A stretch of DNA of 64,000 bases from Escherichia coli (GTDB taxonomy: Bacteria > Pseudomonadota > Gammaproteobacteria > Enterobacterales > Enterobacteriaceae): assembly GCF_003334305.1 (NCBI RefSeq), contig NZ_QOWS01000013.1. One strand, 5' to 3'. Of the stretch, positions 23,051-43,972 are shown piece by piece (position 1 is the first letter of the stretch; every line of letters begins with the position of its first letter). The notes beneath the pieces were generated by a model, which had not been told where the DNA came from, searched no databases, and worked only from the letters and a program-made list of their open reading frames with translations. A program made the position numbers and the translations under genes.

Positions 23051-23170
23051 AATCTCGCGCTAACAACCTGGAATCGAGCCGTCATACTACGGCGCAACGC
23101 CCTATAAAGTAAACGATGACCCTTCGGGAACTTCAGGGTAAAATGACTATCAAAATGTGAATTGTAGCTG

Positions 23171-23203
23171 ACCTGGGACTTGTACCCGGGTCGGTATTTT
23201 TTT
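23171..23203 (+). terminator. Terminator/attenuator hairpin in the greA leader (source of GraL short transcripts)
   Basis: Hairpin ACCTGGGACTTGTACCCGGGT followed by T7, about 95 nt upstream of the greA ATG. Confidence 0.5.
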
Positions 23204-29854: not shown

Positions 29855-29941
29855 GCCGAGGTGGTGGAATTGGTAGACACGCTACCTTGAGGTGGTAGTG
29901 CCCAATAGGGCTTACGGGTTCAAGTCCCGTCCTCGGTACCA
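29855..29941 (+). tRNA. leuU: tRNA-Leu (anticodon GAG), 87 nt, class II with long variable arm
   Basis: Sequence GCCGAGGTGGTGGAATTGGTAGACACGCTACCTTGAGGTGGTAG...GTCCTCGGTACCA with the anticodon loop CTTGAGG and an encoded CCA end. Confidence 0.95.
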
Positions 29942-33721: not shown

Positions 33722-33798
<77 letters not shown>

Positions 33799-33919
33799 CT
33801 TTCCCTTAGAGTCCTTTTTCAAATATACTGTGAAGACTTCGGCCTTCGTAGTGGGATTTGAAAAAATCCTTCTGGAAAGTGCTCCAGACCGCAGTTGCGG
33901 TTATAGGGTTCAGTTATAT

Positions 33920-33946
33920 AAAGCCCCGATTTATCGGGGTTTTTTG
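33920..33946 (+). terminator. Leader terminator/attenuator hairpin between metY and rimP
   Basis: Hairpin AGCCCCGATTTATCGGGGT followed by T6. Confidence 0.65.
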
Positions 33947-33967
33947 TTATCTGACTACAGAATAACT

Positions 33968-33987
33968 GGGCTTTAAGCCCTTTTTTT
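33968..33987 (+). terminator. Second hairpin with T tract immediately upstream of rimP
   Basis: GGGCTTTAAGCCC followed by T7; a tandem arrangement with the preceding hairpin. Confidence 0.45.
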
Positions 33988-38679: not shown

Positions 38680-38758
38680 GTTCCATGCGGGATAAGGCGT
38701 TTATGCCGCATCCGGCATGGATTGCCTGATGTGACGCTGGCGCGTCTTATCAGGCCAA
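38680..38758. repeat. REP/BIME-like palindromic elements in the infB-rbfA spacer
   Basis: GCCTGATGTGACGCTGGCGCGTCTTATCAGGCC and CGGGATAAGGCGTTTATGCCGCATCCGGC, both typical REP palindromes. Confidence 0.6.
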
Positions 38759-39234: not shown

Positions 39235-40178
39235 TGAGTCGTCCTCGTCGTCGCGGTCGCGACATTAACGGCGTTTTGTTGCTGGATAAATCGCAGGGTA
39301 TGTCCAGCAATGATGCGCTGCAAAAAGTGAAACGGATTTATAACGCCAACCGTGCCGGGCATACCGGTGCGCTGGACCCGCTGGCAACTGGCATGTTGCC
39401 AATTTGCCTCGGGGAAGCGACGAAGTTTTCCCAGTATCTGCTGGACTCCGACAAACGCTATCGGGTCATTGCGCGTCTTGGACAGCGTACCGATACTTCT
39501 GATGCCGACGGACAAATCGTTGAAGAACGTCCGGTAACCTTTAGCGCAGAGCAACTGGCGGCGGCGCTGGATACTTTCCGTGGCGATATCGAACAGATCC
39601 CTTCGATGTATTCAGCACTGAAATATCAGGGTAAAAAACTGTACGAATATGCGCGTCAGGGCATTGAAGTACCGCGTGAAGCGCGCCCGATTACCGTTTA
39701 TGAATTGCTGTTTATTCGCCACGAAGGCAATGAGCTGGAGCTGGAAATTCACTGCTCAAAAGGCACTTATATCCGCACCATCATTGATGACCTGGGTGAA
39801 AAACTCGGTTGTGGCGCGCATGTTATTTACCTGCGTCGTCTGGCGGTAAGTAAATATCCGGTTGAACGGATGGTGACCTTGGAACATCTGCGTGAACTGG
39901 TCGAACAAGCCGAACAGCAGGATATTCCGGCTGCGGAGTTACTTGATCCATTACTGATGCCAATGGACAGTCCAGCTTCGGACTACCCGGTGGTGAATCT
40001 TCCGTTAACGTCTTCTGTTTACTTCAAAAATGGTAACCCAGTTCGTACATCCGGTGCGCCGCTGGAAGGACTGGTTCGCGTTACAGAAGGTGAGAACGGC
40101 AAATTTATCGGTATGGGCGAAATTGACGATGAAGGCCGCGTTGCGCCTCGTCGCCTGGTGGTTGAATACCCGGCGTAA
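39234..40178 (+). CDS. truB: tRNA pseudouridine-55 synthase TruB, 314 aa
   Basis: Catalytic motif [14 protein letters not shown] in the translation. Confidence 0.96.
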
Positions 40179-40230
40179 TGTTAACCGTCTTGCGATAACA
40201 GGTCGCTACGAGTAGAATACTGCCGCTTAA

Positions 40231-40596
<366 letters not shown>

Positions 40597-40611
40597 TTCT
40601 TGCGAGTTTCA

Positions 40612-40640
40612 GAAAAGGGGGCCTGAGTGGCCCCTTTTTT
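40612..40640 (+). terminator. rpsO rho-independent terminator
   Basis: Hairpin AAAAGGGGGCCTGAGTGGCCCC followed by T6. Confidence 0.75.
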
Positions 40641-40650
40641 CAAGCTGACG

Positions 40651-40824
40651 GCAGCAATTCACTGGAAACTAATGTATTGTTGCTATGAATGATCTTCCGT
40701 TGCAGAGGTTCGCGCGGCTAATGAGAGGCTTTACCCACATAGAGCTGGGTTAGGGTTGTCATTAGTCGCGAGGATGCGCAGAAGATCGGGTATTAACACC
40801 AGTGCCGTAAGGTACTGTCTAAGA
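40651..40824 (-). ncRNA. sraG: Possible SraG (PsrO) sRNA antisense in the rpsO-pnp spacer
   Basis: Placed from remembered K-12 position only; I cannot confirm the ends from sequence. Confidence 0.3.
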
Positions 40825-40842
40825 AAGAGAAAGGATATTACA

Positions 40843-42978
40843 TTGCTTAATCCGATCGTTCGTAAATTCCAGTACGGCCAACACACCGTGACTCTGGAAA
40901 CCGGCATGATGGCTCGTCAGGCTACTGCCGCTGTTATGGTTAGCATGGATGACACCGCGGTATTTGTTACCGTTGTTGGCCAGAAAAAAGCCAAACCAGG
41001 TCAGGACTTCTTCCCACTGACCGTTAACTATCAGGAGCGTACTTACGCTGCTGGTCGTATCCCGGGTAGCTTCTTCCGTCGTGAAGGCCGCCCAAGCGAA
41101 GGCGAAACCCTGATCGCGCGTCTGATTGACCGCCCGATTCGCCCGCTGTTCCCGGAAGGCTTCGTCAACGAAGTTCAGGTTATCGCCACCGTGGTTTCTG
41201 TTAACCCGCAAGTTAACCCGGATATCGTCGCGATGATTGGTGCTTCCGCAGCACTGTCTCTGTCTGGTATTCCGTTCAATGGTCCGATTGGTGCTGCTCG
41301 CGTAGGTTACATCAATGACCAGTACGTACTGAACCCGACTCAGGACGAGCTGAAAGAGAGCAAACTGGATCTGGTTGTTGCCGGTACTGAAGCCGCTGTT
41401 CTGATGGTTGAATCTGAAGCTGAACTGCTGAGCGAAGACCAGATGCTGGGCGCAGTAGTGTTCGGTCATGAACAACAGCAGGTTGTTATTCAGAACATCA
41501 ATGAACTGGTGAAAGAAGCCGGTAAACCACGTTGGGACTGGCAGCCGGAGCCGGTAAACGAAGCGCTGAACGCGCGCGTTGCTGCACTGGCTGAAGCTCG
41601 CCTGAGCGATGCTTACCGCATCACCGACAAACAAGAGCGTTATGCGCAGGTTGATGTCATCAAATCTGAAACCATCGCGACGCTGCTTGCTGAAGACGAA
41701 ACCCTGGACGAAAACGAACTGGGTGAAATTCTGCACGCTATCGAGAAAAACGTTGTTCGTAGCCGCGTACTGGCAGGCGAACCGCGTATCGACGGTCGTG
41801 AAAAAGATATGATCCGTGGTCTGGATGTGCGTACTGGCGTGCTGCCGCGTACTCACGGTTCTGCGCTGTTCACCCGCGGTGAAACGCAGGCACTGGTTAC
41901 TGCAACGCTGGGTACCGCTCGTGACGCGCAGGTTCTTGATGAACTGATGGGCGAACGTACCGATACCTTCCTGTTCCACTACAACTTCCCTCCGTACTCC
42001 GTAGGCGAAACCGGCATGGTCGGTTCTCCGAAGCGTCGTGAAATTGGTCACGGTCGTCTGGCGAAGCGCGGCGTGCTGGCAGTCATGCCGGATATGGACA
42101 AATTCCCGTACACCGTACGTGTAGTGTCTGAAATCACCGAATCCAACGGTTCTTCTTCTATGGCTTCCGTGTGCGGCGCGTCTCTGGCGCTGATGGACGC
42201 AGGTGTGCCAATCAAAGCTGCCGTTGCGGGTATCGCAATGGGTCTGGTGAAAGAAGGCGACAACTACGTTGTACTGTCTGACATTTTGGGCGACGAAGAT
42301 CACCTGGGCGATATGGACTTCAAAGTTGCAGGTTCCCGCGACGGTATCTCTGCACTGCAGATGGATATCAAAATTGAAGGTATCACCAAAGAGATCATGC
42401 AGGTTGCGCTGAACCAGGCTAAAGGTGCGCGTCTGCATATCCTGGGCGTAATGGAACAGGCGATCAACGCGCCGCGTGGCGATATCTCTGAGTTCGCACC
42501 GCGTATCCATACCATCAAGATCAACCCGGATAAGATCAAAGACGTTATCGGTAAAGGCGGCTCTGTTATCCGTGCCCTGACCGAAGAAACTGGCACTACC
42601 ATCGAAATCGAAGATGACGGTACTGTGAAGATCGCAGCGACCGACGGCGAGAAAGCGAAACATGCTATTCGTCGTATCGAAGAGATCACTGCAGAAATCG
42701 AAGTGGGCCGCGTCTACACTGGTAAAGTGACCCGTATCGTTGACTTTGGCGCATTTGTTGCCATCGGCGGCGGTAAAGAAGGTCTGGTCCACATCTCTCA
42801 AATCGCTGACAAACGCGTTGAGAAAGTGACCGATTACCTGCAGATGGGTCAGGAAGTACCGGTGAAAGTTCTGGAAGTTGATCGCCAGGGCCGTATCCGT
42901 CTGAGCATTAAAGAAGCGACTGAGCAGTCTCAACCTGCTGCAGCACCGGAAGCTCCGGCTGCTGAACAGGGCGAGTAA
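40843..42978 (+). CDS. pnp: Polynucleotide phosphorylase PNPase, 711 aa, UUG start
   Basis: Translation (M)[20 protein letters not shown] from TTG at 40843; two RNase PH domains, KH and S1; ORF-track start at 40756 is an upstream extension. Confidence 0.95.
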
Positions 42979-43087
42979 GGTTGCCATTTGCCCTCCGCTG
43001 CGGCGGGGGGCTTTTAACCGGGCAGGACGCCTTGTTGAGCCGCCGGGAACAGGACGTTCATTCAACCGTGGTCTTCGGGAGTGGGAA

Positions 43088-43972
43088 ATGAAGCCTTTTT
43101 TGCGCTGGTGTTTCGTTGCGACAGCACTTACGCTTGCAGGATGCAGTAATACTTCCTGGCGTAAAAGTGAAGTCCTCGCGGTACCATTGCAACCGACTTT
43201 ACAGCAGGAAGTGATTCTGGCACGTATGGAACAAATCCTTGCCAGTCGGGCTTTAACCGATGACGAACGCGCACAGCTTTTATATGAGCGCGGAGTGTTG
43301 TATGATAGTCTCGGTCTGAGGGCATTAGCGCGTAACGATTTTTCGCAAGCGCTGGCAATCCGACCGGATATGCCTGAAGTATTCAATTACTTAGGCATAT
43401 ATTTAACGCAGGCAGGCAATTTTGATGCTGCCTATGAAGCGTTTGATTCTGTACTTGAGCTTGATCCAACTTACAACTACGCGCACTTGAATCGCGGGAT
43501 CGCATTATATTACGGCGGTCGTGACAAGTTAGCGCAAGATGATCTGCTGGCGTTTTATCAAGACGATCCCAATGATCCTTTCCGTAGTCTGTGGCTTTAT
43601 CTCGCCGAGCAGAAGCTCGATGAGAAGCAGGCTAAAGAAGTGTTGAAACAGCACTTCGAAAAATCGGATAAGGAACAGTGGGGATGGAACATTGTCGAGT
43701 TCTACCTGGGCAACATTAGCGAACAAACGTTAATGGAAAGGCTCAAGGCGGACGCAACGGATAACACCTCGCTCGCTGAGCATCTCAGTGAAACCAACTT
43801 CTATTTAGGTAAGTACTACCTAAGTCTGGGGGATTTGGACAGCGCCACGGCACTGTTCAAACTGGCGGTTGCCAACAACGTTCATAACTTTGTTGAGCAC
43901 CGATACGCATTGTTGGAATTATCGCTCCTGGGCCAGGACCAAGATGACCTGGCAGAATCGGACCAGCAATAG
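43088..43972 (+). CDS. nlpI: TPR-repeat outer-membrane lipoprotein NlpI, 294 aa
   Basis: Lipobox LTLAGCSN and TPR repeats in the translation. Confidence 0.96.

Follow-up and report, generated by a model that had tools for sequence, protein, structure and literature searches.

PNPase is a major RNA-degrading enzyme, required for growth in the cold and, in several enteric pathogens, for virulence. The control region between rpsO and its gene, pnp, has already been fully described in Escherichia coli, with a two-way terminator, an RNase III hairpin, and the antisense sRNA SraG. The rpsO promoter P1 yields both monocistronic rpsO and dicistronic rpsO-pnp transcripts, i.e., the terminator T1 is read through, and the terminators of rpsO and SraG are one and the same bidirectional element (PMC5029454), flanked on either side by the RNase E sites M2 and M (PMC5029454; RNA-seq confirmation in PMC4681348). 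Downstream of T1, the pnp leader carries a hairpin that serves as an RNase III site and in PNPase autoregulation (PMC5029454, PMC4681348, PMC8708148), for which Portier 1987, Jarrige 2001, and Carzaniga 2009 are cited in PMC5029454. RNase III cuts this hairpin at 39 and 77 nt downstream of the start of a second promoter, P2 (PMC5029454), a pair confirmed by RNA-seq (PMC4681348), and the processed pnp mRNA begins at the second cut (PMC5029454). Cleavage triggers removal of the 5' fragment by PNPase, attack by RNase E, and binding of CsrA, resulting in autoregulation (PMC5029454), and two CsrA sites in the processed pnp 5'UTR, one of them over the SD, are credited to Park et al. 2015 in PMC5029454.

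On the opposite strand, SraG was mapped by Fontaine et al. 2016, using circular RT-PCR with and without polyphosphatase, as a 216-nt primary transcript whose 5' end lies 42 nt further upstream than that of Argaman et al. 2001 and whose 3' end is at the rpsO terminator, and the 216-nt form was abolished by a −10 mutation (PMC5029454). The 5' 42 nt are considered the functional part of SraG; the 30S toe-print was blocked in vitro by SraG but not by the shorter SraG-S, and SraG overexpression reduced pnp mRNA, its half-life, and PNPase (PMC5029454). Opposite-strand RNAs in the rpsO-pnpA neighbourhood are also known from Listeria (RliD) and Enterococcus (ref41), although, according to PMC5029454, they share no sequence similarity with SraG.

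The window analysed here is a stretch of 64,000 nt from E. coli contig NZ_QOWS01000013.1 (assembly GCF_003334305.1). Alignment revealed that positions 40562-40900 were identical to K-12 MG1655 base for base (100%), and a 701-nt query over the region matched all 5426 complete E. coli genomes (5426/5426), with at least 99% identity in 5412 of them. The MG1655 annotation showed the same arrangement, with rpsO (b3165), the ncRNA gene sraG (b4449, 3311183..3311398), and pnp (b3164, start 3311168). In the window, the rpsO coding sequence for ribosomal protein S15, taken from the ORF list and identical to MG1655 b3165, occupied 40327-40596 on the plus strand and ended with the stop codon TAA at 40594-40596. 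No evidence conflicting with this identification was found, and the locus is almost certainly the E. coli rpsO-pnp intergenic control region, with signals on both strands that would operate as set out below. The additions of the present analysis are limited to the window coordinates of each element and the evidence that its structure is conserved on the mRNA strand. Identity to K-12, element coordinates, helix stability and conservation, the family match, and the strand asymmetry were computed here, while T1 read-through, P2, the RNase III and RNase E cuts, autoregulation, CsrA binding, and the expression and effects of SraG were derived from the literature. For conservation analysis, the first 120 residues of PNPase, which are independent of the spacer, served as the anchor to collect loci from 80 different Enterobacterales species belonging to six families, giving 81 sequences together with E. 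coli. In each of the 80, pnp was preceded by rpsO and started with TTG, and the spacer measured 201-353 nt.

Other elements were observed around the locus. The S15 leader (Rfam RF00114, 117.6 bits), covering the S15 autoregulatory pseudoknot region, was found at 40269-40383 (plus strand), overlapping the rpsO start, and a sigma-70-like site TTGCGA-17-TAGAAT at 40190-40218 (plus strand), just upstream of this leader, fits the rpsO promoter P1. The remaining Rfam matches above the gathering score in the window were the ArcZ sRNA (1475-1582, minus strand) and, on the plus strand, the greA leader (23081-23202), the rimP leader (33887-33987), naRNA4, a nucleoid-associated RNA/REP-like element (38686-38756), and two tRNAs (29855-29938 and 33722-33795), all of which are expected in this part of the E. 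coli chromosome.

T1 was located at 40613-40640, beginning 16 nt past the rpsO stop codon, and the terminator scan, the sequence, the predicted fold, and PMC5029454 together identify it as an intrinsic terminator acting in both directions, for rpsO on the plus strand and for SraG on the minus strand. Its stem is formed by GGGGCC (40618-40623) and GGCCCC (40629-40634) around the loop UGAGU, with A-U and G-U pairs extending it to 40613/40639, and it is flanked by AAAA upstream (40613-40616) and TTTTTT downstream (40635-40640), so that a U-run follows the stem on either strand. The scan detected the minus-strand stem-loop (40634-40618) with its U-run, and the plus-strand terminator was read directly from sequence and fold. 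Across the 81 species, 93% of the T1 cells were paired. T1 looks strong by sequence, and leakiness is not a property that can be read from it; the description as leaky comes from the published monocistronic and dicistronic transcripts. The initial annotation had placed the rpsO terminator at 40612-40640, followed by about 200 nt of leader before a UUG-initiated pnp; both statements agree with the stem-loop and six T residues of T1 and with the non-coding spacer of 202 nt (40641-40842) between T1 and the TTG at 40843, the MG1655 start.

Just upstream of T1, a conserved single-stranded block, GCGAGTTTCAG, was identified at 40601-40612 (plus strand), in which AGTTTC was at least 90% conserved among the 81 sequences. 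The decay of rpsO mRNA is initiated by the cut of RNase E at M2, and conservation together with the published arrangement suggests that this AGUUUC block is probably the M2 region. In its GC stem-loop, U-run, and preceding AGUUUC block, the element corresponds to the known T1 with the RNase E sites M2 and M, and no differences were found. Variation near T1 was also observed. In one of the 5426 E. coli genomes (NZ_OZ040555.1, 3371-4818), an IS4-family element lies inside T1 (corresponding to 40620-40630 of the window) with an 11-bp target duplication, GGCCTGAGTGG, splitting the stem-loop that terminates rpsO and SraG; an insertion sequence in the same spacer of Yersinia pestis is mentioned in PMC5029454. 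Moreover, Pantoea, Erwinia, and Tatumella (Erwiniaceae) carry, after the rpsO stop and ahead of the conserved GCGAGTTTC block, about 60 additional nt, the ends of which are inverted repeats (e.g., TCTGATCA...TGATCAGA), resembling an additional hairpin upstream of T1.

Structure prediction for the leader (40641-40860) gave a minimum free energy of −75.1 kcal/mol, compared with −57.4 ± 4.5 kcal/mol for dinucleotide shuffles (z = −3.97), and none of the 200 shuffles was as good. Three helices, H1, R, and H3, were predicted 3' of T1 on the plus strand. H1 (40650-40684, plus strand), supported by the fold and by covariation, is a hairpin of the dicistronic rpsO-pnp transcript, and in its main helix 8 of 10 pairs were changed on both sides among the 81 species. 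The 3' arm of H1 also contains TATTGT (40675-40680, plus strand), which is probably the −10 box of P2, as judged by its right distance from the P2 start; A40676 and T40677 were at least 90% conserved in the 81 sequences. The start itself was derived from PMC5029454 and placed at 40685-40688 on the plus strand, to within 3 nt. The in vitro pnp RNA of that study runs from +1 of P2 to nt 79 of the ORF (40921 in the window), and its stated length is either "positions 1-234" or, with GGG, 237 nt (PMC5029454); because these two lengths disagree, +1 is either 40688 or 40685. A simple sigma-70 scan recovered neither P2 nor the SraG promoter, and the −10 boxes of both were assigned from the mapped starts only, since both −35 regions are weak.

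Downstream of P2, the fold, the alignment, and the literature define the long hairpin R (97 nt; 40691-40787, plus strand) as the RNase III substrate and the element of PNPase autoregulation, as had been stated for this leader in the initial annotation. Combining the published distances of 39 and 77 nt with the estimated P2 start, the two RNase III sites were placed approximately at 40723-40727 in the 5' arm (RIII1) and 40761-40765 in the 3' arm (RIII2), both on the plus strand, with the P2 start and the cuts accurate only to about 3 nt; RIII2 falls within an invariant block at 40757-40776. On geometric grounds, two cuts 38 nt apart that leave a 2-nt 3' overhang would fit the predicted helix exactly if they fell after 40723 and 40761. 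The invariant 3' arm further contains a GGA motif (40772-40774, plus strand), a candidate for the upstream CsrA site that, judging from the sequence, would be exposed only after processing. Between R and the ribosome-binding site, a small hairpin, H3 (40800-40817, plus strand), was recognised in the fold and by folding each species separately. Compared with the leader element described previously, the features in common are a long imperfect hairpin lying 3' of T1 and P2 and 5' of the UUG and two RNase III cuts 38 nt apart, and no differences are apparent. The Rfam database contains no family for this plus-strand element, and the scan names only the antisense sRNA. The full-length fold also paired the first pnp codons (40850-40861) with the sequence flanking R on its 3' side (40781-40791), an interaction that was dropped; over the 81 species the duplex was barely better than shuffled flanks (mean z = −0.75), with z < −2 in only 14%.

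The conservation of these helices was evaluated by projecting the E. coli structure onto the alignment of the 81 species, with partners slid by 1-3 columns as controls. Paired cells amounted to 87.0%, compared with 43-49% in the slid controls, and the covariation score was 0.210, compared with at most 0.096 for slid partners. A total of 37 of the 68 pairs were changed on both sides, and the observed values were reached by none of 500 shuffles. The arms of R were nearly invariant in the alignment, namely TTCGCGCGGCTAATGAGAG (40709-40727) and TGTCATTAGTCGCGAGGATG (40757-40776), while the apex tolerated insertions of up to about 60 nt and the base of R, H1, and H3 varied in sequence between species. 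The R helices were 82-95% paired; the central helix was 94.7% paired with six invariant pairs, and the lower helices covaried, with 10 of 12 pairs changed on both sides. The invariance of the arms, each about 20 nt long, over six families may indicate that they are recognised by their sequence and not just as a double helix. For H3, all six pairs were changed on both sides in the alignment, in which H3 aligns badly, and alignment-free folding showed that most of the 81 species form a hairpin of different sequence at the H3 position (mean z = −1.78; z < −1 in 72%). RNAalifold found no consensus for the RNase III-processed leader, where MAFFT scrambles the variable stretch, and alignment-free folding of each species was used in its place. 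Lineage-specific insertions that left the invariant arms untouched were also noted. Enterobacter sp. BIGb0383 carries an extra 110 nt or so between T1 and H1 (about 690-800 of its locus), and 30-60 nt are inserted at the R apex in Dickeya oryzae, Budvicia, and an Enterobacteriaceae MAG.

The translation initiation region of pnp, as supported by the sequence and the MG1655 start, comprises the SD AAGGA (40831-40835) and the start codon TTG (40843-40845), spanning 40831-40845 on the plus strand, and this TTG corresponds to the mapped start of MG1655 b3164. The spacer could in principle be coding instead, either because pnp starts at the in-frame TTG at 40756, giving 740 aa, or because a short leader peptide begins at ATG 40685 or ATG 40689; indeed, the ORF list extends the pnp frame from 40756 without interruption, and short ATG-initiated frames can be read in the leader. 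Such a coding spacer is extremely improbable, given the curated MG1655 start at TTG 40843 and the toe-print at +15 from that UUG (PMC5029454), the variable length of the spacer (201-353 nt), with indel sizes not divisible by three and 1-nt gaps within the candidate short frames, and conservation that tracks the paired arms rather than codons. The short leader ORFs and the upstream TTG were rejected on the basis of the frame-breaking indels and the curated start, and pnp is taken to begin at 40843 behind a non-coding leader. Its start was TTG in all 80 other Enterobacterales species (80/80), and the strict retention of this weak start codon is consistent with autoregulation at the level of translation. 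Two products of ORF calling in this region are unlikely to be real, namely the reading frame 40756-42978 (plus strand), which stretches pnp to 740 aa over the leader hairpin, and an 855-aa stop-free "shadow" ORF opposite pnp (40819-43386, minus strand).

An antisense sRNA, SraG, had likewise been reported for the spacer in the initial annotation, with its ends left undefined. An Rfam scan covering all families matched SraG (RF00082) at 40613-40784 on the minus strand with 164.3 bits (gathering score 50; E = 5e-30) over the full model (1-177), in line with MG1655 b4449, so that the spacer contains both a conserved structure and an sRNA match. The ends could now be assigned from the identical MG1655 sequence, in which b4449 is mapped, and from the circular RT-PCR of PMC5029454, placing the primary transcript at 40613-40828 on the minus strand (5' end 40828, 3' end 40613; 216 nt). 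SraG thus lies between rpsO (end 40596) and pnp (start 40843) on the opposite strand; the mapped MG1655 ends delimit the 216-nt primary transcript of PMC5029454, the transcript starts at 40828 with a minus-strand T, in agreement with PMC5029454, and the 3' terminator is Rho-independent and common to rpsO. Relative to SraG of E. coli K-12 (psrO; b4449; RF00082), sequence, position, orientation, extent, and terminator are the same, with no differences. The older annotation of 174 nt starts near 40786, and the Rfam model represents only this form, lacking the 5' 42-44 nt that form the functional part according to PMC5029454.

Transcription of SraG and its repression of pnp are known from published assays, including Northern blots, cRT-PCR, the −10 mutant, toe-printing, and RNase III assays (PMC5029454). 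From its position relative to 40828, the hexamer TAATAT (ATATTA on the plus strand; 40835-40840, minus strand), located between the pnp SD and the TTG, is probably the exact SraG −10 box; this location fits the remark in PMC5029454 that the −10 mutation is close to the pnp SD without overlapping it. Overall, the observation in the initial annotation was confirmed and its interpretation supported, including by the two published RNase III cuts at 39 and 77 nt from P2 (PMC5029454; PMC4681348), and the sole refinement concerns the SraG promoter, which covers the stretch between SD and start codon together with the first codons of pnp, just outside the interval noted (40597-40842). A permissive Rfam scan of 40150-41000 yielded no further families, with one chance match on the terminator. 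The SraG model also gave a sub-threshold match on the plus strand (40694-40853; 20.5 bits, E = 0.56), which is expected because the hairpin is largely mirror-symmetric.

Considering that a hairpin on one strand has a mirror image on the other, the strand on which the structure is maintained was evaluated. Every helix was more stable on the plus strand than on the minus strand, with values of −19.9 and −15.7 kcal/mol for T1, −11.0 and −6.6 for H1, −46.1 and −33.4 kcal/mol for R, and −9.9 and −4.3 for H3, respectively, and over the whole spacer the plus strand folded better in all 81 species (81/81; mean −106 vs −78 kcal/mol). Furthermore, a G·U pair is tolerated only in the mRNA and an A·C combination, as counted on the plus strand, only in SraG. 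Among departures from E. coli Watson-Crick pairs, to which the count was restricted to counter bias in the pair list, G·U occurred three times as often as A·C (321 vs 106) and prevailed by pair position as well (35 to 9; sign test, P = 1e-4), the counts per cell and per position coming from related sequences and thus not representing independent events. An initial count in R of 389 to 44 was biased, as the pair list had been taken from the plus-strand fold, and the asymmetry became smaller after correction. In E. coli itself, five G·U pairs of R correspond to C·A mismatches in SraG. These results suggest that selection maintains the helices for the mRNA strand, with the SraG fold as a weaker mirror-image by-product.

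The reverse, in which selection acts on the fold of SraG itself and the hairpin of the pnp leader is its mirror image, would agree with the fact that SraG on the minus strand is the sole curated RNA family over the region, with Rfam matches above the threshold at all 20 sampled loci from six families (20/20; 67-162 bits), and with the in vitro cleavage of free SraG by RNase III at mirror-image sites (PMC5029454). The weaker helices on the minus strand, the better plus-strand folding in every species, the excess of G·U over A·C, and the five C·A mismatches nevertheless make it very unlikely, as do two properties of the sRNA, namely that the functional 5' 42 nt of SraG (PMC5029454) lie outside the conserved hairpin and that the E. 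coli TAATAT box was present at its position in only 21 of the 80 species, scattered phylogenetically. It is thus the mRNA-strand structure that appears to be conserved, and Rfam "SraG" matches outside the Escherichia-Salmonella-Citrobacter group may not by themselves demonstrate production of an sRNA. As a tentative extension, which we consider quite possible but short of probable, the "SraG" family would mostly be the mirror of the cis-acting pnp leader element, with the sRNA as a lineage-restricted add-on arising where the A/T-rich initiation region forms a promoter.

It could further be asked whether SraG, although a real transcript, is itself a by-product with little regulatory role, arising from a chance −10 box in the A/T stretch between SD and start codon and trimmed by the bidirectional terminator. 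The scattered occurrence of TAATAT in 21 of 80 species and the selection of structure on the other strand point in this direction, as do the poor expression of SraG, the change of only about 1.3-fold in pnp mRNA and PNPase upon mutation of its promoter, and the lack of other targets found in E. coli (PMC5029454). However, the effects of overexpression, the block of the 30S toe-print, the mapping of an older autoregulation mutant to the SraG −10 box, and the response of SraG levels to temperature and the stringent response (PMC5029454) argue against it, together with a function for SraG in Yersinia pseudotuberculosis that is reported in PMC5029454. Other −10-like hexamers were also detected in the A/T-rich stretch of most species, so that transcription is possible there too. 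Enterobacter cloacae, Klebsiella oxytoca, Kosakonia, and Pantoea are among those in which the hairpin is retained and the TAATAT box is missing. On balance, this lack of a regulatory role seems rather unlikely, though far from negligible, and SraG is treated here as a modest regulator of pnp.

Taken together, the elements would work as follows. Transcripts from the rpsO promoter would either stop at T1 or read through into pnp, and P2 would initiate just past T1, such that either type of pnp mRNA would bear hairpin R and be cut by RNase III in both arms. The short upstream fragment would then be stripped from the duplex by PNPase, leaving a freed 5' end open to RNase E and CsrA and the message inactivated, whereby PNPase would limit its own synthesis from the weak UUG start. 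On the opposite strand, a weak promoter in the interval from the ribosome-binding site of pnp to its start codon would produce the 216-nt SraG, fully complementary to the leader and terminated by T1 in the reverse direction. Pairing of the first 42 nt of SraG beside the SD would prevent 30S binding and give rise to additional RNase III cuts, with a modest drop in pnp expression as the net outcome.

For annotation, a strong Rfam match to an antisense sRNA can stem from the structure of the mRNA on the opposite strand, and "SraG" calls in every Enterobacterales genome may overstate the spread of the sRNA. In E. coli, at least four layers of control act through the rpsO-pnp region to set the PNPase level, namely RNase III, PNPase itself, CsrA, and SraG.
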